Shown piece after piece: positions 1 to 33,989 of a DNA stretch of 64,000 nt. Numbering within the stretch: position 1 is the stretch's first letter; the number at the start of each line of letters is the position of its first letter. The translations under genes and the position numbers were made by a program. The stretch is from the NCBI GenBank assembly GCA_951406725.2, contig OX597823.1, forward strand, positions 117,366,001 to 117,430,000, in the 5' to 3' direction. The stretch comes from Octopus vulgaris (Eukaryota). The notes beneath the pieces are model-generated. The model saw only the letters and a list, made by a program, of their open reading frames with translations, ran no database searches and was not told where the DNA came from.

Positions 1-1310
1 TCTGTAGCAGAACTGGAAAAGAAATTCCAGGTGTGAAAGCAAAACCTGGAATCATGGGCCTGAAAGTTAAGCTAGCAAAGACCAAAGTTGTAGCTAGCAT
101 GAAAGCAGACACAACTCTTTCTGCCAGGTAAATGGTCCTGCTCAATATATAGAAAAGGTGTTGGAAGGAATTCCATTTGATGCTTCAGAGCAAACTATGG
201 ACACATGACAGGTGAGGTGGAATCACAGGTTGGTTAATAGAGAGGCATAGGAGCAGTAAACACTAAAAACACATGGTAAACAAATAGCTTGTTAGAGCCA
301 TACAAGCAATGTATAGGGGCTCGGTGGGATGAGAGTCAGCCATGAGTACAGTGATGAATTTTAGTGTACAAGTAGGAGTTTACCAGTCCTCAGTTCCCAG
401 TCCCTTGTTGTTCATCATAAGTCCTCCAGGACACAACAGATAAATTTAAGACTGACTGTCCACGTGAAGTACTATGTGCTGAGGATATCACTTTTATAGC
501 AGAATCTGTAGCAGAACTGGAAAAGAAATTCTAGGTGTGAAAGCAAAACCTGGAATCATGGGCCTGAAAGTTAAGCTAGCAAAGACCAAAGTTGTAGCTA
601 GCATGAAAGCAGACACAACTCTTTCTGCCAGGTAAATGGTCCTGCTCAATATATAGAAAAGGTGTTGGAAGGAATTCCATTTGATGCATTCAGAGCAAAC
701 TATGGACACATGACAGGTGAGGTGGAATCACAGGTTGGTTAATAGAGAGGCATAGGAGCAGTAAACACTAAAAACACATGGAAATTATATATTCTCAAAT
801 ATCCAGGAGGCTTCCTAGAAGTTGTAGATTGATTTTTTACCTTGGTGACCAAATTAACAGTGGAGGGGGATGTTCTGAAAGTATAGTTGCTAGAATAAGA
901 ATACCTCAGAATAAAAAGGTAGACTGTTTGATAATGATGTACTAACAGCTATGCTCTATGGTTGTTAGATCTGAATCCAGCAGGCGTGTGAAGACTGGGG
1001 AGGAATGAAGCTAGTATACTCTGATGGACATGCAACATATCTTCAAAAGAATCAGATGCAGCATGCGAGAGAAGACTGCAATGGTTTGATCATGTGATGT
1101 GTATGAATGAGAACAGCTGTATAAAGAAGTGCTGACTGCTTAAAGTGGATGGAACCTGCAGAAGTAAGAGACCCAGGAAGACATGTGATGAAGTAGCGAG
1201 AGCCAACCTCAAGTTGTTGAGTCTCACAGAAGAGATGAAAATAGACTGAGATGTCTGGGGGTAGGAGGTTTTTGAGAAAACCCACCCACCTCAGCAAAAC
1301 TGAGTCCTGG
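1..1310 (+). mobile_element. Old, degenerate RTE-clade LINE fragment (RT C-terminal half to end of ORF) with internal tandem duplication
   Basis: Decayed motifs collinear with the RTE copy at 36460-38890 (GLKVKLAKTKV, W.CSI.RKGVGRNSI, YLGDQI, RPRKT.DEV). Bases 1-277 are repeated at 505-781. Confidence 0.75.
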
Positions 1311-21721: not shown

Positions 21722-22168
21722 TGAGAGACTGTAAATGTGTGCATATCTATGTTGCAGGGGTAAATGGAAGTATACTTCTCTTATGAGATTTGAGCTTATG
21801 GTAAGATCTAAAGAAGCAAGATGAAGAATTTTCGAGGTCAGAGAGTGCAATGTTTTAAAGAATATTTCAGTGTATTAACATTGTGTGTGGGGGGGGGAGT
21901 ACCGTTACAAAGGAGAGATAATCTTCCCATGTGATTTAAAACTATCCACCAGATTTTGTTGGTCAAAACCAGTTTTTTTTTTTCATTTACATTGTTAATT
22001 ACTTTGAAAGAGGTTTCATCATTCTCTTCCTCACCCACCCCTATATAAAAGATATTTTCTCTTTACCAATATATCTTCCCTTAAACAATGTCAACTCTCT
22101 ATCAGAAAGAGAGAAAGAGTGGCTGACTGAATCATATCCTAAATCCAGTATATTTATGATATGTTACC

Positions 22169-22228
<60 letters not shown>

Positions 22229-22232
<4 letters not shown>

Positions 22233-22537
22233 ATCATTGTGGTCACTGTGACCAACCAGGCTATCAGATGTTGCCACACATTGCTGGTCACAATGCACTT
22301 CGCATTGTTTCATATGACGCCACCCTCCTGGCTAAGCGAGCAGGCCAACAGAAGAAAGAGTGCGAGAAAGTTGTGGCAAAAGTGTACAGCAGGGATTTCC
22401 ACCACCCCCTGGTGGAGCCTCATGGAGCTTTAGGTGTTTTCGCTCAATAAACACTCACAACACCCGGTCTGGGAATCGAAATCGCAATCCTACCACTGCG
22501 AGTCCGCTGCTCTAACCACTGGGCCATTGTGCCTCCA
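22229..22537 (-). mobile_element. tRNA-derived SINE (family C-related head)
   Basis: Minus strand GGAGGCACAATGGCCCAGTGGTTAGAGCAGCGGACTCG...GATTTCGATTCCCAG (A and B boxes). Confidence 0.8.
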
Positions 22538-22538
22538 C

Positions 22539-22574
<36 letters not shown>

Positions 22575-23121
22575 ATGTATGTCCAGCCTAGAAAGAGGTT
22601 TAACCCTTAGTTCAGTTTACTTGCCCGCTAAATAGAATTCACTTTCACATTGTAACAAATTAGTATTTTCCTAGAATGAAGGGAATTGTCTCCTTGTTAT
22701 CTTAATGCTATGTCTTTCTTAGTGGTTTAGGTGTTTTGAAGCAGGACATGACAAGTACACTCTTACAGAAACCTAATGTATATTTAAAACAAGATGTCTA
22801 CTCAGGTTGTCATAGATACCATCTAACCTTATCTTGTACATATTTCTCTAATATCATCAATTTACTTAAATGATACTTAAACTAGCTGCTCCTCATTTGA
22901 GGATTTTCACCAAGAACTTCTATCATTTATATATCATGTATCAATAAAAAGCTCTATATATGCTCACATGACCTGCTAGAAAGAACAGCCATATTCTCTA
23001 AGATTCTTCATGCCAACTTAAACAAATACATTGGATAAAGTAGTCCTAGATGCACCATCTTTGAATAAATGATGGGATAAAATGGTCATAAATGGAATGC
23101 TTTTTTTTTTTATCCTAGATG

Positions 23122-23379
23122 TACTTGACCAGGGTTAATCCATGGTTGAATAAAAACACCAACCAATTTGGTGGCAGCTCTGAGCAGTCAGCAGGTCATA
23201 GAAAACTACAAATGGTCTTTGAAAAAAATGTTGGTTCCAGCTGTTGTTGACTGCTCTGTAATCTTTCTTTATTCCTGCCAGCAGTTCATTTGTGGTTTTC
23301 TATGACATGCTGAGAGCTTGGTAGTGCCACCACATTGGTTGTTATTATTATTTAACCATGGGTCAGCCCTGATGAAGTA
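23122..23379. repeat. Imperfect foldback, ~90-bp arms
   Basis: tacttgaccagggttaatccatggttgaata...aaccaatttggtggca...tcagcaggtcatagaaaactacaaatg pairs with catttgtggttttctatgacatgctga...tgccaccacattggtt...tatttaaccatgggtcagccctgatgaagta. Confidence 0.8.
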
Positions 23380-23436
23380 AGAATGGTTTTGTAGAAAGAA
23401 ATAACCAACAGACTACCATTCTCAACAATAACAGCA

Positions 23437-23640
23437 ATGGCAAATAAACAACTGCCACCTGGTGCTGTGGGAATACATTGGAGAAAGCAGGAATTCCTTA
23501 ACTGATTGAAAATTAAAGTTGAAAGAGTCAAAATGGCACTCAGTAAATGGGAATGTAGCTCCTCCAATGACACACTGTGTGACTGTGGCACAGAGCTACT
23601 TGGAACAACTGTTGAGATGGCTTCTAATGTAAGAACCATG
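23437..23640 (+). mobile_element. Degenerate C-terminus of an Ingi/Vingi-like LINE
   Basis: QLPPGAVGIHWRKQEFLN*LKIKVERVKMALSKWECSSSNDTLCDCG resembles the LPPG..W..LNRLRTG.GR...L.KWG...CDCG pre-CCHC motif. Confidence 0.55.
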
Positions 23641-23996
23641 GGTATCTGATGGCATTGCAATATACAATGGCAATGTAAATAAATGTGTTCAACTTTGACT
23701 GAATGGGAAGTAAACTGAGAAGACAGTTAATATATGGGAGACATTACATCTGGCTCAGTGAGGGTTCAGTGTTTATTCAGTAAAGTAATAGATTTAATTA
23801 GAAATATTGCTAGACTGTCAATTCCCTCTGTAGCAATCGAGAATTAATCTGTGGTAGACCAATATTTATAGGAAAGCTTGGTCTTTTGTCCATTTAATGC
23901 CACACTAAGGCACAGATAAATACAACCATTCCCTGCTGTATTTCCAGGAACCTTTTAATGTGGCAAATGACTGATTCTGTATTCGTTTTTATTTAT

Positions 23997-24200
23997 TCTT
24001 TTACTTGTTTCAGTCATTTGACTGTGGCCCTTTAGTCAAACAAATCGACCCCAGAACTTATTCTTTGTAAGTCTAGTACTTATTCTATTGGTCTCTATTG
24101 CCGAACTGCTAAGTTACAGGGATGTAAACACACCAACATCAGTTGTTAAACGGTGGGGGGGGGGGTAAATACAGATACACAAATACATAACATATACATA
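23997..24200 (-). mobile_element. SINE family A, 3' half (5' half at 31958-32108)
   Basis: Tail and body up to the internal microsatellite. Confidence 0.8.
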
Positions 24201-24364
24201 TATATATGTGTATATGTATGTATATATATATATATGTATGTATGTATATATATATGTATGTATGTATGTATGTATATAAATGTATGTATGTATGTATGTA
24301 TATATATATGTATGTATGTATGTATATATGTATGTATGTATATAAATGTATGTATGTATGTATG

Positions 24365-24397
<33 letters not shown>

Positions 24398-24535
24398 ATA
24401 TGTATGTATGAATATAAATGTATGTATGTATGTATGTATATATATATATATATGTGTGTATGAAAGAAAAAAGATGTTCAGAATGCTGGATGGTTGTAAA
24501 AGTATATATTTATTTACATATCACATATTATTACT

Positions 24536-24580
24536 TCCTATTAGCGCTTTCAACTACTCCTGTAGTTTCATCAGAAATGT
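24536..24580 (-). ncRNA. Minimal hammerhead ribozyme in the Penelope terminal repeat
   Basis: Minus strand ACATTT-CTGATGA-AACTAC-AGGA-GTAGTT-GAAA-GCGC-TA^ATAGG. Intact core, perfect 6-bp stem II, palindromic AGCGCT stem III, weak stem I. Confidence 0.75.
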
Positions 24581-24924
24581 CAGTTTTAAAAGTTTTGTTT
24601 GTATTTATATTATTGGTAAATGAAGTGGGGAGAGAGAGAGAGAGTGTGTGTGTGTATATATAATGGAGAATAGAGGGAGGGAGGTGAAAGAGAGGGAGTG
24701 ATAGGGAGATAGAGGGATGGAGAAGGTGAAAGAGAGAGAATATGGGTGTGTGTGTTTTAAAACTGTGTATTTTTGTCTTTTTTTCTTTTTTGGGGTCTTT
24801 TTGTATTTTTTGGATGACCCTTGTAAGAAATGGAAAGAGAGAAGGAAAAAGAGGATTTGAGAGGGTTTGTTTTTTAATAGTAGGTGTATTGCTATGTACA
24901 CCCACACATATATCCCCACATATA

Positions 24925-24959
<35 letters not shown>

Positions 24960-25231
24960 ACATACACTCACATATATATACACATATGGAGGAACCTATT
25001 ATGTGTGTACATTTTCATAAACATTCAGACATACATGTGCTGTGTGATCTTGAAAATGAGAAAGAAAGAAAGAAAGGGAAAAAAATAAAATATAAAAATA
25101 AAAATATAAAGAAAATGTTGTGTCCATTCTTCACTTGGCACTCCCTTGGGTTTCTAAAAGAACAGGTGGTTGACCATTCAATGCTTGATATACATATATA
25201 TACACCAAAACACATATCAATATGTGTACAT

Positions 25232-25303
<72 letters not shown>

Positions 25304-25329
25304 ATGTACACATATTGATATGTGTTTAG

Positions 25330-25366
<37 letters not shown>

Positions 25367-25525
25367 CACACACACCCACACACATAGAAATATACATGCA
25401 TATACATACATACATACATACATACATACATACATGTACACATATATACACACACATACACATGCATATCCACATATACAGCCACACATATATGCATACA
25501 CATACATATACTTGCATACATACAT

Positions 25526-25566
<41 letters not shown>

Positions 25567-25814
25567 CGACCACATATATCAACATATATATATATAAGAT
25601 ATATGAAACTTGTCTGTACATATATATACACGTCTATATGCATATAAGCATTTATAATCACATACATAGTCAGAATTTTAAGATGCATAATTGTATATAT
25701 AAGAAAAGAAAAGGGAGAATTCTTTCATTTGTATATAAAGATATAGAAAGAGGTTTTTTCCTTTTTTTTGTGTGTATCACATCATCATTGACTTTTTGAC
25801 TACTTTTACTTTTT

Positions 25815-26784
25815 TTAGCCATTCAATTTTGGGCTAAATTTTTCTATGAAGTGCAGTTCCATAGCTTTACGGTATTCCGGGTCATTCCATGAGCATTTGC
25901 AGAATGGAATAATTTTAAATTTTCCATTTCCGCATACTTCTAGGTGTTTGCTTAATGGTACCTTGCGTAACTCTTCCTGTTTTATATGCTGCCTATGTAT
26001 TCTGGCGCATTGGCAGAGAGACTTGTTCATTTCGCCAATATAGTTTTCCTTGCAGTTTGGGCAAGTAATGCGTTTTGCGTTTTGCAAGTCATATTATCAT
26101 TTCTGAATTTTAAGTGGGAACCACATTGTAGGCATTTGTAATTATTCTCGTTGTTGCATGTTCCGCATCTTTTGTCTCCACATTCTGTTACTGAGAATTC
26201 TGGTCCCTTCTCCGATCTGAATTCTGCCCTTGTAAGGTGCTTTTTAAGGTTTTTCGGTTGGCGTTTGTTGTTGAGTAGGATTTTTTTGTTCATCAGGTTC
26301 CTCATTTTAGGGCTTTGTAGAAGGATAGGCAAGTTTGATTTTATAGTCTGGAAAATATTTGTATAGCCAGGACTGTGTGTGGAGACGAATGGTATTGTTT
26401 GTTTATTGGTTTTTGGTGTTCTTAATTCGCTGATGTTGAGTTTCAATGCCTTTTTAAAACCTTCCTTTATCAAACCTGAAGGGTATTTTTGTATTTCGAG
26501 GAAGTCCTGTAGTTCGTCGAGTCTAGTGTTTCGTGTTGCAGTGTCTCTTACTATAGTGCATATGCGTCTTGCCATGCAGTAGGGTATATTTCTTTTAATG
26601 TGTGATGGGTGGCAAGAGTCAAAGTTAAGATAGTGATGTGGGTCTGTTTTGTTTTTGTAATAAATGTCTGTAGTTACTCTGCAATTTTTTATTTTTATGA
26701 GAATGTCCAGGAATGGTAATTCATTAAAGTTGGATTCTGTGGTAAATTGTATGGCTGGGTGCAATTTGTTTAATATCTCTTTAA
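25815..26784 (-). pseudogene. PLE RT thumb + Zn-finger-like linker + GIY-YIG endonuclease (frameshifted)
   Basis: LHPAIQFTTE..ELPFLDILI..TDIYYK.TD...YLNFDSCHP..IPY..ARRI; CGDKRCGTC; ITCPNCKENYIGE...R..QH...HLEVC...R..ME..FI..F.PKLN. Confidence 0.9.
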
Positions 26785-27869
26785 CCCTTTCGTTACTATA
26801 TTTCTGACCAAAATACACCCCTCATGAGTTTCAATTAAATTCTAAAATAATCATGAATCTAGGCTTGTTTCATTAAATAACTGTAACTTTTTTTACTTAT
26901 CAACATATTAATGTGATATTTGGAACATAATTAAAGAAAGGGTTCTTAATCAATTCTATTGCATAACTTTTGTTTCAAAGTGACTTTAATTACAGGTAAA
27001 TCCAGGTAAATTGAGCAAAAGGTAAAAATATTAAAATTTTGTTTAAACATCACCATAGAAAATAAATCATCAGCTAATATTCAAATGGGTATGCAACAAA
27101 ATTTTGATAAAGAAGAATTGTGCACATCACTATATCATCAGTTGAATTTAATACACAACAGGTGTACCATAAAGGTGGAATAAACTGAAATTTTGGAATC
27201 CACCGTAAGTTTGACCGAACTAAAGAAATCGGTCAAAAAATAATATACGGCCCTGGTTATGGTATGGAAGTGATAAATTCCAGACCACATCGTTCCCTAG
27301 GCCATGCTGACTAACATTATTTTCCCTGTATAAAAACTAAATCCACAAAGTACCCAGTATTTGCTTCACAAATTTTCCGAAATTTGAACCCCCATTTTGT
27401 GTTTGTTTACATTTTGCGTAAGTTTGTTTCCGCATTGATCGCTTCAAACAATAACTTCCAGACCACATCATACCCTAAGCCATGCTGACTAACATTAGTT
27501 TCCCTGTATAAAAACTAAATCCACAACAGTACCCAGTATTTGTTTCACAAATTTTCCAATTCGGAATCAATGCTTGATAACATGAAACTCCTATCCATTT
27601 TCAAAGTTGAAGAAAAATCGATGCCGAAAAAAATATGGAAAAAAATCTCCCAAAATTCAGGGAATTAAAATTACACGTCGATCGTTGTACAAAACTGTCG
27701 ATGAACTGTTTACGAAGCATAATCACGTGTTTTCACAAATGTACTAAAGAGATTTGCTCTGATATTCTCATTTAAATATGAATAGGTAAATTCGGGCGGG
27801 TTTGGGCGGTTTGGTCACATTAACCAAAATTTTTTTCGGGCAGCTTTGGGCGGTTTGGTAAAGAAAGGG
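26785..27869. mobile_element. Non-autonomous piggyBac-type DNA transposon inserted in the PLE RT
   Basis: TTAA duplicated at 26781-26784 and 27870-27873. TIR ccctttcgttac / gtaaagaaaggg. Internal ~100-bp direct repeat (27278-27378, 27456-27557). Excision restores SDMDLNTF-KEILNKLH. Confidence 0.9.
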
Positions 27870-29090
27870 TTAAAAGTGTTTAGGTCCATGTCTGATTTTT
27901 CCCAAAAGATGAAGCAATCATCAAGAAATCGTTTCCATTATTTCATAATGTATATCTTGAATTCCTGGTCAAAGGTTTTTTCTACTTCTTTGAAGAGTTT
28001 TTCCTCCAGAAACCCCATGACCAGGTTAGCATATGAAGGTGCAAAGCGTGTACCCATAGTTGTGCCCTTTATTTGTTTATATGTTTTGTGGCTAAATTTA
28101 AATGTGTTTTCCTCCAGAACTATGCGTGTGGCTTTGATGATGAGATCCATCTTAAAATGTTCATCTATTTTATCTCTATGCCTTGTCACCCAGTATTTCA
28201 CTGCTTCCAGACCTAGAGAGTGGGGAATATTGGTGCATAGGTTGGTGACATCGAAACTTGTGAGTATGGTACATTCTGGGACTATGTCCGGGATATGTTG
28301 TAGGAAATCGATGCCATCTCTTACATAGCTTGGTAGGAGGGGGCATAGAGGTTTAAGTATGATGTCCAAAAAAGTGGCTAAATTGTTGGGTCGGTGCTTG
28401 GGGGCCCGTCACTATTGGCCTTAGTTTCAGGTCTGTAGGTCTTGGTATTCATATATATTTGTTTTTTTTGTTCGTTAATGACATTTTCTATTGCCGAGCT
28501 TTTGTGGATTTTCGGCAAGCCATATATATTCTTTCTCTTTTTCTGTGAAAGAGTCTCGGTATTCTTCGATCAGTTTTCTGATTTTTGATTTTGTTGTCTT
28601 TTCTGGGTGCCCTGGTTCTTCCTTGTAATATGTTTCGTCTGTCAGCATTTCCAGTATTTTGTCTTTATAGTAGTCCTTACCCATGATTACTATTGCTCCA
28701 CCCTTACCTGCTTCTTTTAAGATTATCGAGTTGTCATTTTTTAGTGTCTGTAGTGCTTCTTTTTCTTCTGTAGAAAGGTTTTGTTTGTGTTTTTGTGACT
28801 TCAGAGGAAATTTGGAGATTGTTTCAATATATGTATCCAGATATTTTGTCACTTCCCTTGTGGGGGGGGGGATTTCTTTTTTACTATTGATTCATCCTCA
28901 AAATCCTTATTTCCTAAGAATTCTAGCAGTCGCAGGCGACGGCTAAAGTGTTCCACATCTGATTTCAGTTCGATCAAATTAGGTGTGGGTGTAGGGGTAA
29001 ATTTAAAACCCTTTAGTAATAGTGTCATTTCATTCTTATTTATATTTCTATTTGATAAATTTATTATTTTGGGGTCTGTGTGTTTGTTTA
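27870..29090 (-). pseudogene. PLE N-terminal and RT core (stops and frameshifts)
   Basis: IINLS...LLLKGFKFTPTP; NLSTEEKEAL..LK..IILKEAGKGGAIVIM; RPIV; SFDVTNL.TNIPH; YKQIKGTTMGTRFAPSYANL.MG; WKRFLDDCFIFW. Confidence 0.9.
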
Positions 29091-30505
29091 GAGTCTGTAT
29101 TTTATTGGGTCCAGTGGGTGGTTTTGGAAGTTTTTCCCTAAAAAAGAAGGTGTGTTGTTTTCTCTTCGTCTTCCAGGTTCAGGAATTCGTTTTCCATATG
29201 GTGGGGGAGGTGTTGGTTCAAATCGACTGTAAGGAAGTCTTTGGTATTCGGTTCTGTAATCCTCCCACTTGTCATAGGTTATGGGTCTTTTGGGTTGCAT
29301 AGAATTTTTTGGTTTTCTATGTGGATTGTTTGAATATTTCTTCATTTCTTCGGTCCATCCAGTGTTTTTGGTGTTGTAGGCAGCTGGTTGCTTGTATGTC
29401 AGTTTTCTTTTGTGTCCTTTTTGATTTCTCCAGTCAATATAATTGTGGTCATGGGTGATTGGAAAGTGCGGGTTCCTCAACCTCACTTGGTGAGGTGGTT
29501 CTGCTTTTCCCGTATATGGAGTTGAGAGATATACATTTTGGTAGCTTTTTCTGGTTCTGTTGTGTTCGTAGTTTGAGTTTGTATTCCATTTTCTTGTATT
29601 TTGTTGTTTTTGTTGGTGTAGTTGTGTTTTTGTTTTCATGGTTGATTTGTCTCCATAATTCTTTTCATAGGTTGTAAACCATTCTTGATGCTTTTCCCAC
29701 ATTTTTCTGCATCTTGCTTCTTCTATGTCTGTATCTCTCTTCCATAGGTTTCTCAATTTCTCGTGGCATTCTTTATCACTTCATTCTGTAATTTCAGTGT
29801 GCATGATGGTGCCTATTGTTTTAGTTTTCTCCTCGTATCGTGTTTTTCGAGATTCGAGGAGGGAAATTTCTGTTTCTAGGCGGTATAAGGCTAAGTTTTC
29901 ACGTATCTGTTTTTCTTCTAAAGCTTCGCCCTGTATTTCTTTGATCAGGAATTTCCTGGGTAGGATTGGTTCGGCTTTGCTTCGCCAATTTTTGTAAATA
30001 TTTGCTGTTTTCACAGCGGAAGCTTTTCCAGTAGGCATGTTTTCGTTGGTTTAGGAGTTTTTTTCCAGAGGTTCGGTTTCAGGGGGTTTTGTTCTTGGGT
30101 TTCACTTTTAGTTGGTTTCTTTTATTTGACTCAATTAATTAAGCATTTTCAGTGTTATTCTTATGGAGATCATTTTCTCTGTTGTGGAGAATTGCATCCA
30201 GTTTTAGGATGATCAAGTTTAGTTTTTGGGATATTTCTGTTAGAAGTTTTTCTGCGTTTTTGGTATCTTTTGGTTGAGTTCATTTGTGTTTCGTTCATTC
30301 TGGATTTATAGATTTCTGTAAGAAGATCTTCTGTAGATTCCGTGTTATTTATTCCAATGTTGCATATTCTGCAAATTTGTGTGAGGAGATCTGTCTGTTG
30401 TGAGTATTCTGTTTCGCTTCTTTCAATGAGGTTTCCTGTATTGCTGGAATTTTCTAGTCGTGGGTTTGATTCTAATCCATCCATTCTGAGGTCGTGTACA
30501 TCCAA
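29088..30505 (-). pseudogene. Upstream/N-terminal coding region of the PLE (coiled-coil, Trp-rich, function unknown), fragmented
   Basis: Three successive minus ORFs (30170-30505, 29781-30038, 29088-29756) inside the element, e.g. IYKNW..EPILPRKF...IQGE...IRENLA...EISLL, LWKRD..EE..MWEK.QEWF..YE. Confidence 0.6.
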
Positions 30506-30817
30506 ACAAGTATGTTAGAAGTATTGGGGACGATGTACAGATTTAATACATATGAAAGAAAAAAGATGTTCAGAATGCTGGATGGTTGTAAAAATATATA
30601 TTTATTTACATATCACATATTATTACTTCATATATATATATGTATGTACAAAGTGAGATAGGGGTTATGAGTGTAACCCAGTATGGGATATCAGTTATCC
30701 AATATACTGGTGGTCAAGCACCCAAAAGGCAAATACATAAATGCTTACAATTGCAATGCAATTAATTCATTTATTGTATTAGATGGGCGAAGGTAAAATG
30801 TTTTACCTCAAATTCAT

Positions 30818-31187
30818 AATACAAATAAGAAAATGGAGGAACAGATTCCTTTCAATCATCGACTTACGGATATTACCAATTCATATTATTTATTAACTAC
30901 GTAAATAGGAACATCCAAATCCAACAGAATAAAACAGTATACATCAATAAGTAAGATAATACCATAAAAATAATACACATATAATGGATCCTACAGCTGT
31001 TTTAGCCTGTAGATAAGGTATCTCATTCTGCATATATTAGTCAGATGTATTGAGGTAATATGCAGTTAGAAATGAGTTACTTATATATATATAATCTTAT
31101 ATATAATCTCGTCAGAGATTATAAAGTACAATTATAAAATTACAAAAATGCAAATATAAATATGAAACAAAATACACATACGCAAGA

Positions 31188-31218
<31 letters not shown>

Positions 31219-31901
31219 TATATATATATGTATATATATAATAATATACATACACATAAGGTTACAGATAATCAAATATATATACTGGAGTATACATATA
31301 CATCCACATCAATTGGTATATATACAAAGTACAAAGTTCATTACATTATCAAAACTATTAATATTATTATTATTATTAATAATACCAATATTAGATTGTG
31401 TGCATTCTGCTATTCACAATACATAGTAGATGGAAAATACCACATAAAATATAGTATAATATAATATAATATATTATATATCACATATACAATATAGTAT
31501 AACATAATATATAGACAGATGTTTATGAAAGATGCAAGCACATTAATTCAACAAATTATGTCATTATATTCATATATCATACAGTCAAAATCTAAACTTC
31601 AGTCTTATTCTGCATACATATATATATACATACAGCTAACAAATACATGTATATGCATATACATACATGCGCAAAAAACATCTACTAATACATATACATA
31701 TATAAAGAGATTTTATCCTTTTACATCATACAAAAGATATATGCATGTACATACGTAGAGTTCACAGATCAAGAGGTAAGAGATAGGTCGTTACGGGCTA
31801 TGCTTACGTCCTATTTATGTAGTTAATAAATAATATGAATTGGTAATATCTGTAAGTCAATGATTGAAATGAATCTGTTCCTCCATTTTCTTATTTGTAT
31901 T
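30818..31901 (-). mobile_element. Non-coding PLE-derived element with inverted ~92-bp repeat and degenerate HHR
   Basis: 30818-30910 is inverted at 31809-31901. HHR-like motif at 30987-31119. Confidence 0.6.
30987..31119 (-). ncRNA. Degenerate hammerhead-like motif with long stem II
   Basis: Minus strand ATCT-CTGACGA-(~105 nt containing CTCATT..CTGCATAT/ATATGCAG.AATGAG stem)-AAAA(for GAAA)-CAGCTG-TA-GGAT. Confidence 0.5.
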
Positions 31902-31957
31902 TATATATATATATCATTATTTAACGTCCGTTTTCCACGCTAGCACGGGTTATATAT

Positions 31958-32108
31958 GACATGCTTCTTTCAGTTTCCGTCTACCAAATCCACTCACAAG
32001 GCTTTGGTCAGCCCAAGGCTATAATAGAAAACACTAGCCTAAGATGCCACATAGTGGGACTGAACCCGGAACCATGTGGCTGGTAAGCAAGCTACTTACC
32101 ACACAGCT
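31958..32108 (-). mobile_element. SINE family A, 5' half
   Basis: Head and body up to the internal microsatellite. Confidence 0.8.
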
Positions 32109-33989
32109 GCTAATTTTTATTTTATCATCTACCTGTATTGAAATTTTGACAAAACTGGTTTTAGTCTTCAAAGTAAGCAGGAGTTGAGAGACATTGCTCT
32201 CTTGAATGACACTAACACATCCTAAGTCAAGTATATGGTACCAGTTTCAACTTACAGCAGTAAACTGTATCTCTTCTTCCAGTTATGTAAGTTACTGCTA
32301 ACCAGGTTTGACTTTGACAAGTCAGAATTGAAATGTGTTGGTATGTTCTGTAAAGAAAAGAAATTTTAATGTTTCAAAGTAAGATTTTATAAAAACTTTA
32401 ACCAAAAATATTAGATCTTTTTCTCTCTATTGCCTCTTTCTATGGCATTAACTCTTCGTAGCACAGATCTCTTCAGGTCTTCACAGTTGATGGGGATTCT
32501 ATAAATCATTGAAAGTTGTATTTTCTGGAAGACATGGGATGTGAACTATTGATTCTTCAGGTATTTCGCTGATAATCTGACAACCCAGTTAACATCATCT
32601 CTAATAAACATGGACATTTCCTGCAAAATTGACAGAAACACAATCTTATTCTTTTTACAATAACACTATCAACTTACAGTGTAGCCATTGTAATATCTTT
32701 AAAACAAGAAATCACTCTTTTTAATCTAACATTCTTTGGTAATTCTAACTCTATATTATTTTCAGTCTGAGATTCGATCCTATATGATAGAAATTAATCC
32801 CCTTCTTTATCTGGCATAAATTCCTCTTTCTTTCTTTCCAACTCCCATCTCTGTTCAGCTAACTAATGTCATATTACTTGTTCTTTAAATGAAGAAATCA
32901 TCAAAACCCAAAGATAAGATTCCACTATGTAATTCACTGTCACCTCATATTTCACATAATTCCAGTCATATTTCATCTGTCTATAGAAATTCCTGCTAAA
33001 ATAAATTACAAAAGTGACATTAACAACAAAGTAGATTTCCAACCTTATCCCTATGTTCTTTGATTTAATTACTCACACACGATTTATCAATTTCGTTTTA
33101 TTTTATTTTTAAATAGCGAGGTCTTCAAATTTCCTCTATATCCTCATATCAATTATATCAATTTCCATTTGCTTGATAATTACTTTTGGAAATATCATCA
33201 TCCTCACTGTTGTGACCATCATCATCATCATCATCATCAATAAGTCAACAAAAGCAACAGAGTACTCGAAGGCCTTACACTATTTAATCTCATCAATCAT
33301 TATTCTGATTTGAAACTCTGCTGTGGTTGATTGATCACCTAACTCTCTAGGCTCAATGAAATAAGTAGCAATGAATACGGTTGTTAATTCAATTAATTAT
33401 ATACACTTACTTAAATAAAACGAAAAACAGTTGTCTTGTATTTAAAGAAAATATCGTAATTATTGTTATTGTTGTTGTTGTTAAGGTTGCTTGCATAGTT
33501 GATATCTAATCAACATTTTATGGTGGTGAAATTGGTTAAAAATGAACCACAGTAAGATGTTTTATTTCATTACAGATTCAAGTCGTAGGGTATATTAAAT
33601 TCACAATAATGAACTAATAAAATGCTTGTTAATCATTCAGTGCTTTCGCCACTTACTGTGATCAACTGTACCACCTCATGACACCTATTAACAAATACAA
33701 GAACAAAGTCAACAAAAGTGTCTCAGCTACTGGAGCAGCTCCTCCAGTTTGCCAGCTCTTGTCAAACCACCCAACAAATAATGATGATGCCAGCTCTTGT
33801 CAAACCACCCAACAAATGCTGATGATGATGCCTCCCCCCCCACACACACACATAGTCACTGATTATACAGACACTATCATTGATAGCATATAGACCATCA
33901 TGATGGTGTAACATTATCAGTTTAGTTAACTGTGAGTCAGCCTCAGCAGTGAAATTAGTGGCAACTGTAGAGCACCAACTAAATTCTTT

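Follow-up and report, generated by a model that had tools for sequence, protein, structure and literature searches.

The window analysed here, a stretch of 64,000 nucleotides of Octopus vulgaris contig OX597823.1 (assembly GCA_951406725.2, positions 117,366,001 to 117,430,000 of the forward strand), carries on its minus strand at 30633-24459 a dead, full-length Penelope-like retrotransposon (Penelope-like element, PLE) of the Neptune type, which has a minimal hammerhead ribozyme near its 3' end. The genomic ends of its family suggest that the family was copied mainly from RNA left uncut by the hammerhead, and that hammerhead-cut RNA was the likely template of the window copy and a few others; this reading as a whole is given a probability of about 0.45. 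Uncut RNA as the main template is the highly probable part of it, and a minor route through cut RNA is plausible. The role of hammerheads in PLEs that encode an endonuclease (EN+ PLEs) has been called 'still unclear' (Craig et al. 2021, PMC8557442; papers are cited here and below from portions of their text), and cleavage was dispensable in vitro (PMC11167929). The ends of genomic copies reveal which RNAs were used as templates in the germline. Here they point to a predominance of uncut RNA from a TATA-driven start, with a cut-RNA fraction that is small at most, and this accounts for the many stubs with a ribozyme in animal genomes.

The element is bounded by a direct repeat of 83 nt with 98% identity (24459-24541 and 30551-30633), which forms its terminal repeats, or pseudo-long terminal repeats (pLTRs). 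The predicted type I hammerhead lies at 24537-24579 on the minus strand, with CTGATGA at 24574-24568, stem II AACTAC/GTAGTT with loop AGGA at 24567-24552, GAAA at 24551-24548, GCGC at 24547-24544, T24543 and A24542. It thus has the CUGANGA and GAAA core, stem II, the self-complementary stem III AGCGCT and the U16.1-H17 step of its class. The cut was placed by hammerhead numbering between 24542 and 24541, so that 24541 is +1; the motif description was taken from PMC4209133. A preliminary description made from the letters of the window had located this cut correctly, had recognised a PLE whose minimal type I hammerhead is predicted to depend on dimers, and had noted that the 5' repeat starts within 0-4 nt of the cut and has no ribozyme. 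All of this was borne out by the reverse transcriptase (RT) and GIY-YIG regions, the core and stems II and III, and by a 5' end at +1 to +5 with no ribozyme upstream of it.

Genomic ends of the family

The family was counted with an exact 26-nt marker at +42..+67, which gave 143 matches genome-wide. All were fetched and scored by anchored extension against the window 3' repeat and no rows were dropped; diverged copies without the exact marker fall outside this census. The census was used instead of two earlier DNA searches, whose best 40 of 327 and best 40 of 367 candidates were biased with respect to the 5' end. Shared flanks among the census copies (three at +19, two at -18) slightly inflate the background.

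The 5' ends revealed one sharp edge upstream of the cut. While 21 copies end at or beyond -51, where the extension was capped, and 2 at -50..-41, 33 end at -40..-36 and 21 at -35..-30, which makes 54 at -40..-30; further in, 35 end at -29..-1, 4 at +1..+5, each of them called +1, and 27 at +6..+41. The cut site is therefore overrun upstream in 112 of the 143 copies. In a direct pattern count, 110 matches read through the cut and 8, at 5 loci, do not, one of the 8 being a 1-nt deletion within a read-through copy. A sister family (L154-L166), which is younger and far more abundant, has 1830 exact marker matches, and its full-length repeats are 93-100% alike. The first 100 of these matches, representing 98 distinct contexts, gave no copy called at +1..+5, with one ambiguous case (L187, which could be +1..+3 in one subfamily).

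The preliminary description had proposed a pile-up of family 5' ends at the cut as a test; the census shows no such pile-up and does not support the view that ribozyme cleavage sets these ends. In its strongest form this view holds that the hammerhead routinely excises monomers from tandem transcripts, sets the 5' end and possibly feeds circular templates, a model proposed in PMC4209133. The window copy and the loci C16 and C11 described below agree with it, but it is contradicted by the census and by the excess of read-through matches, and the two repeats of the C16 locus differ at about 6 of 83 sites, a family dimorphism included, which speaks against one circular template. This strong form is accordingly regarded as very improbable. 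The broader idea of a genomic footprint of ribozyme processing survives as the plausible minor route.

The position of the main edge was compared with the promoter. A TATA box, TATAAATA, lies at -68 (24602-24609, minus strand) and is conserved in the sister family; it stands 31 nt above the modal 5' end at -37/-36, which falls on the CA of ACATTTC, and the sharp edge as a whole lies 28-32 nt below it. The TATA core is invariant at this canonical distance in an alignment of the two families with 67% identity. When the sister sample was re-scored, 40 copies reached or passed the TATA box and the remaining placed ends piled up at TATA+28..+43, 20 copies without a recognisable cut motif being unplaced. 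The upstream edge lies at -45 in sister copies with a TATA-to-cut spacing of 73, at -46 in those with 75 and at -40 in the window-copy family with 68, and so equals TATA+28/29 in each spacing class; the classes are small for sister spacing 75 (7 ends) and sister spacing 68 (5 ends). Since the edge moves with the TATA spacing and not with the ribozyme, -40..-36 (24577-24581, minus strand) is likely the transcription start.

An edge 3-7 nt above the hammerhead core might also mark a point where RT stalls or folds back at the 5' side of the ribozyme, and the presence of inverted junctions in 72 of the 143 copies would suit such fold-back. The edge is, however, equally sharp in non-inverted copies, where 18 of the 50 ends downstream of -51 lie at -40..-36; its shift with the TATA spacing and not the core across subfamilies, and the invariant box, also count against a stall, which is considered improbable. 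A splice acceptor at -37 was ruled out, since the position lacks an AG and the copies share no exon upstream of it. A promoter scan with bacterial models, which are not applicable here, found nothing above shuffles. With the edge read as a start site, the short copies are best taken as RT runs on uncut RNA that likely began at +83 or +123 and reached its 5' end.

The 3' ends fall into two groups, 79 of the 143 at +78..+91 and 58 at +118..+124, with 6 elsewhere. The extension of the window 3' repeat by about 80 nt past its own hammerhead had been ascribed to a ribozyme that was not cleaved or was regenerated. The 3' ribozyme was indeed uncut in the template, but the extension itself is simply the standard 3' end of the family. 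In inverted head-to-head pairs, 20 of 20 have one arm ending at +80..+88 and the other at +119..+123 (for example G000:C2:32101266/32101446). The two 3' ends are thus coupled within one insertion event and not independently chosen. A tail at one end only has been described in PMC8557442 and PMC3846280.

Copies that begin at or near the cut

The footprint of cleavage is weak and that of the start site is clearer. With true ends simulated as uniform and real flanks kept, the chance of a +1 call was 1.9%, that is 1.2 expected per 65 ends between -29 and +36, against 4 seen among 65 (P=0.034). All 22 candidates were scored, and 5 family loci had sequence beyond +123. The 5' repeat is contiguous with the ORF (open reading frame) start in two of these five, the window copy and G000:C16:56679867, and each of the two begins at +1. 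At C16 there are two such starts, with neither microhomology nor a TA flank, and C11:27314943 shows a junction of 291 to +1/+2. No census end was called at -3..-1 or +2..+8.

The same uncut-RNA mechanism could account for the window copy in another way, its 5' end being an ordinary late truncation at about +5 joined to (TA)n by ATAT microhomology, with the match to the cut coincidental and no footprint of the ribozyme. This alternative is a serious one, held at somewhat less than even odds. Between -29 and +36 the ends are scattered at about one to a base (61 in 60 positions), with no excess at +1..+5; the ribozyme is weak as a monomer, and the flank of the window copy is indeed (TA)n. It accounts poorly for the exact, microhomology-free starts at C16, the C11 junction, the +1 start of both ORF-contiguous 5' repeats and the empty positions on either side of +1.

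The window copy itself illustrates the difficulty. The first four bases of its 5' repeat (ATAT) could equally belong to the (TA)n flank, which leaves the true 5' end anywhere from +1 to +5. The sequence after the cut had been given as ATAGG, which is correct for the window 3' repeat; the family majority is ATATG, as in the window 5' repeat, and only 3 of 79 scored repeat matches have the minority allele ATAGG. The +4 variant in the window 3' repeat is an inherited allele. If the 5' repeat of the source RNA also carried it, the window copy must start at +5 and ATAT is flank. For the window copy alone the odds between cleavage and ordinary truncation at +5, a difference hidden by the TA flank, are about even.

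Several observations weigh against the proposal that a few copies derive from cut RNA. Without the window copy, which was ascertained, 3 of 64 ends lie at +1 (P=0.12, not significant), and pooling +1..+5 gives no excess (P=0.71). Two of the four +1 ends lie in (TA)n flanks, and a third, C13:74058392, lies in an inverted junction explicable by stem I complementarity. The two C16 starts may be non-independent, perhaps one event. The +4 variant is found in three copies on one haplotype, one of them short; the window copy would start at +5 if the 5' repeat of its source had it. Among sister long copies, 12 of 17 extend upstream through ribozyme and TATA box and none of the 17 starts at the cut. 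In the literature, metazoan minimal hammerheads cleave poorly in vitro (PMC4209133), and RNA-seq is reported to have shown no reads at the cut for Poseidon (PMC11167929). The weak stem I and the energies given in the next section belong on the same side.

Two loci with repeated starts were recorded. The C16 locus (L153:2340-2920) is a chimera in which +1..465 is joined to +1..+83, with the same 11-nt element sequence before each. Template jumps between two RNAs are its likely origin, whereas a circular template is made less likely by the mismatches of the two repeats. At L041 (G000:C20:60602990-60603173), four tandem copies of about +1..+24, separated by (TA)n, precede a short copy, and the 5' junction is stuttered with starts at +1..+5. 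A control pattern for +14 junctions gave 0 matches; being longer than the +1 pattern and lacking a denominator, it was not used as evidence.

Hammerhead fold and proposed mechanism

Of the 63 copies that span the hammerhead, 40 retain an intact core and U16.1. Two-sided changes between the window-copy family and the sister family affect C3-G8 and two of the pairs in stem II, in an alignment of 9 hand-picked, related sequences. On core conservation and covariation the motif is more than a chance match. The sister hammerhead is partly degenerate, with a U3-A8 core variant and broken closing pairs in stem II. In the majority allele, stem I has four pairs plus a U-U mismatch, and one more pair is broken in the window 3' copy; formation of this stem of 4-5 bp around the cut is unfavourable in the energy model. 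The monomer fold was not better than shuffles (z 0.08, -0.67, 0.71). A covariance-model search, proposed earlier as a check, gave no hammerhead at E<=1 in an Rfam scan of 22000-33000, where only microsatellite-driven false matches to microRNA models appeared. Rfam models are expected to miss minimal hammerheads lacking stem III.

The following route would combine these observations. Transcription would start about 31 nt below the TATA box of the pLTR and place the hammerhead at the very start of the RNA. The element protein would nick AT-rich DNA, and reverse transcription would begin inside the RNA at +83 or +123. A start in the first unit would give a stub of 120-160 nt ending at the RNA 5' end, the commonest product; a start in a read-through second unit would give a long copy, for which the 3' ribozyme must be uncut. 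RNA with two hammerheads could pair both through the AGCGCU palindrome as a double hammerhead. If the RNA starts at -37, its 5' unit would lack C-38:G+5, the sole G-C pair of stem I, and cleavage of the 5' site by the 3' core would then be favoured over the opposite reaction, giving the pattern of the window copy with a cut 5' end and an intact 3' ribozyme.

The nearest-neighbour model gave stem I energies of -17.1 kcal/mol for the 3' core on the 5' site vs -14.1 kcal/mol for the reverse, a gap of about 3 kcal/mol. Both double-hammerhead states lie above stems II and III alone (-20.7), and stem I contains the U-U mismatch. Since stem I is uphill from stems II and III, protein help would be needed, as reported for Poseidon (PMC11167929). 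The model predicts the 5'/3' asymmetry, which vanishes if transcription starts at -39 or -40. A specific version, which is regarded as doubtful, is an asymmetric double hammerhead in which the complete 3' ribozyme would cut the cap-bearing ~37 nt off the 5' end of the mRNA and the 5' ribozyme, shortened by the start, could not cleave the 3' site on which long copies depend. Full-length copies that begin at +1 and template jumps at +1 would then be in vivo fossils of the cut, and the stubs at -37 would represent uncut RNA.

Comparison with known systems and element anatomy

The family resembles the Poseidon element PAc of Anolis carolinensis (Frangieh et al. 2024, PMC11167929) in its two internal RT start sites bounding a tail, its AT-rich targets and the use of uncut RNA as main template. 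In vitro, Poseidon RT starts internally at two sites and acts mainly on uncut RNA. The PAc ORF begins within the ribozyme, but that of the window-copy family about 150 nt past the cut, and the available text does not map PAc genomic 5' ends to a start site or cut. In the R2 retrotransposon, a self-cleaving ribozyme like that of hepatitis delta virus can likewise define the genomic 5' junction by its cut (PMC3774820); here the share of junctions at the cut is 4 of 143, and 0 of 98 in the sister sample, one being ambiguous, and not a majority.

Metazoan minimal hammerheads (PMC4209133) share the core, the long stem II, the palindromic stem III, the short stem I and the predicted dimer action, and their U3-A8 core variant is the one seen in the sister family. 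The window hammerhead differs in having no bulged base after A9 and A-U, not G-C, at 10.1-11.1, and the model of monomer excision and circles from that source is not the main route in this family. A promoter and start site within the pLTR are also described for Penelope (PMC2377424) and the Adineta vaga Penelopes (PMC3846280), the latter with putative TATA and initiator-like motifs including ACATT. Penelope of D. virilis is, unlike the window-copy family, TATA-less with an internal promoter (PMC2377424). In the portions of these two papers considered, 5' ends of short copies are not tied to the start site, and solo pLTRs are ascribed to recombination or deletion. A literature search turned up no paper in which the genomic 5' ends of PLEs are mapped to a hammerhead cut or start site; supplements were outside the search, and Fig. 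S2 of PMC11167929 could be relevant.

The element itself is ordinary and, like its ribozyme, its tail and the inverted structures, is of a known kind. Like Neptune-clade EN+ PLEs (Craig et al. 2021, PMC8557442), it is characterised by RT followed by a C-terminal GIY-YIG endonuclease, a CX2-5CxxC linker, a CCHH finger and DKG, by pLTRs with inverted 5' copies, an optional 30-40-bp tail at one end and (TA)n targets, and by a hammerhead in the pLTR and a frameshift-separated ORF1; the usual partial tandem upstream is absent from the window copy, which begins at +1 to +5 of the cut site. RT and endonuclease were recognised through the ORF2 of the sister family and its alignment to the window. The linker reads CGDKRCGTC in the window and CGDGRCGTC in sister copy L161, where the finger (CITCPTC plus two H) and the DKG motif (ADKGG) are present. 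The Hydra clade was rejected, its DKT motif, lack of CCHH and CxCX5C linker being at odds with L161. The element is thus classed as Neptune-type from its sequence, the choice of Neptune over Nematis being made by motifs alone.

The features are given in minus-strand order. The 5' pLTR (30551-30633) corresponds to +1..+83 from the predicted cut, its true start lying at +1 to +5 next to the (TA)n flank, and is followed by a ~40-nt tail (+84..+123, 30511-30550) between the two preferred 3' ends of the family, which are likely RT start sites, partly by analogy to PMC11167929. ORF1 (29091-30484, N-terminal region) was located by tblastn and is broken into three reading frames relative to the sister ORF1. 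A candidate -1 frameshift heptamer, TTTTTTA followed by GGG, lies at 29139-29145 and is conserved in both families. ORF2 (25815-29028) comprises RT, a CX4CxxC linker and the C-terminal GIY-YIG endonuclease and is broken by frameshifts, stops and an inserted miniature inverted-repeat transposable element (MITE). It aligns to the sister ORF2 at 55-73% in its main pieces, in several frames. The RVT_1 match of the window ORF2 fragment (E=0.003) is below the cut-off, and the intact sister ORF2 passes the cut-offs (RVT_1 3.5e-10, GIY-YIG 8.2e-6). The 3' pLTR downstream of the cut occupies 24459-24541, with the proximal 3' end (~+83) within a TA/CA microsatellite. No target-site duplication is definable for the window copy because both flanks are microsatellite.

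Sister copy L161 has an open ORF1 (535 aa) and an open ORF2 (729 aa) in the -1 frame. The slippery sequence UUUUUUA-GGG lies between ORF1 and this frame in both families (L161:2570 in the sister copy) and resembles the HIV-1 gag-pol shift site. The MITE at 26785-27869 (strand unassigned) is a later, non-coding insertion of 1085 bp which splits RT and contains an internal 76-nt direct repeat; from its CCC...GGG ends and TTAA duplication we take it to be piggyBac-like. After the 3' microsatellite, at about 24070-24190 on the minus strand, lies a repeat tail assumed to be of the short interspersed element (SINE) kind, and similar sequence flanks the C16 insertion.

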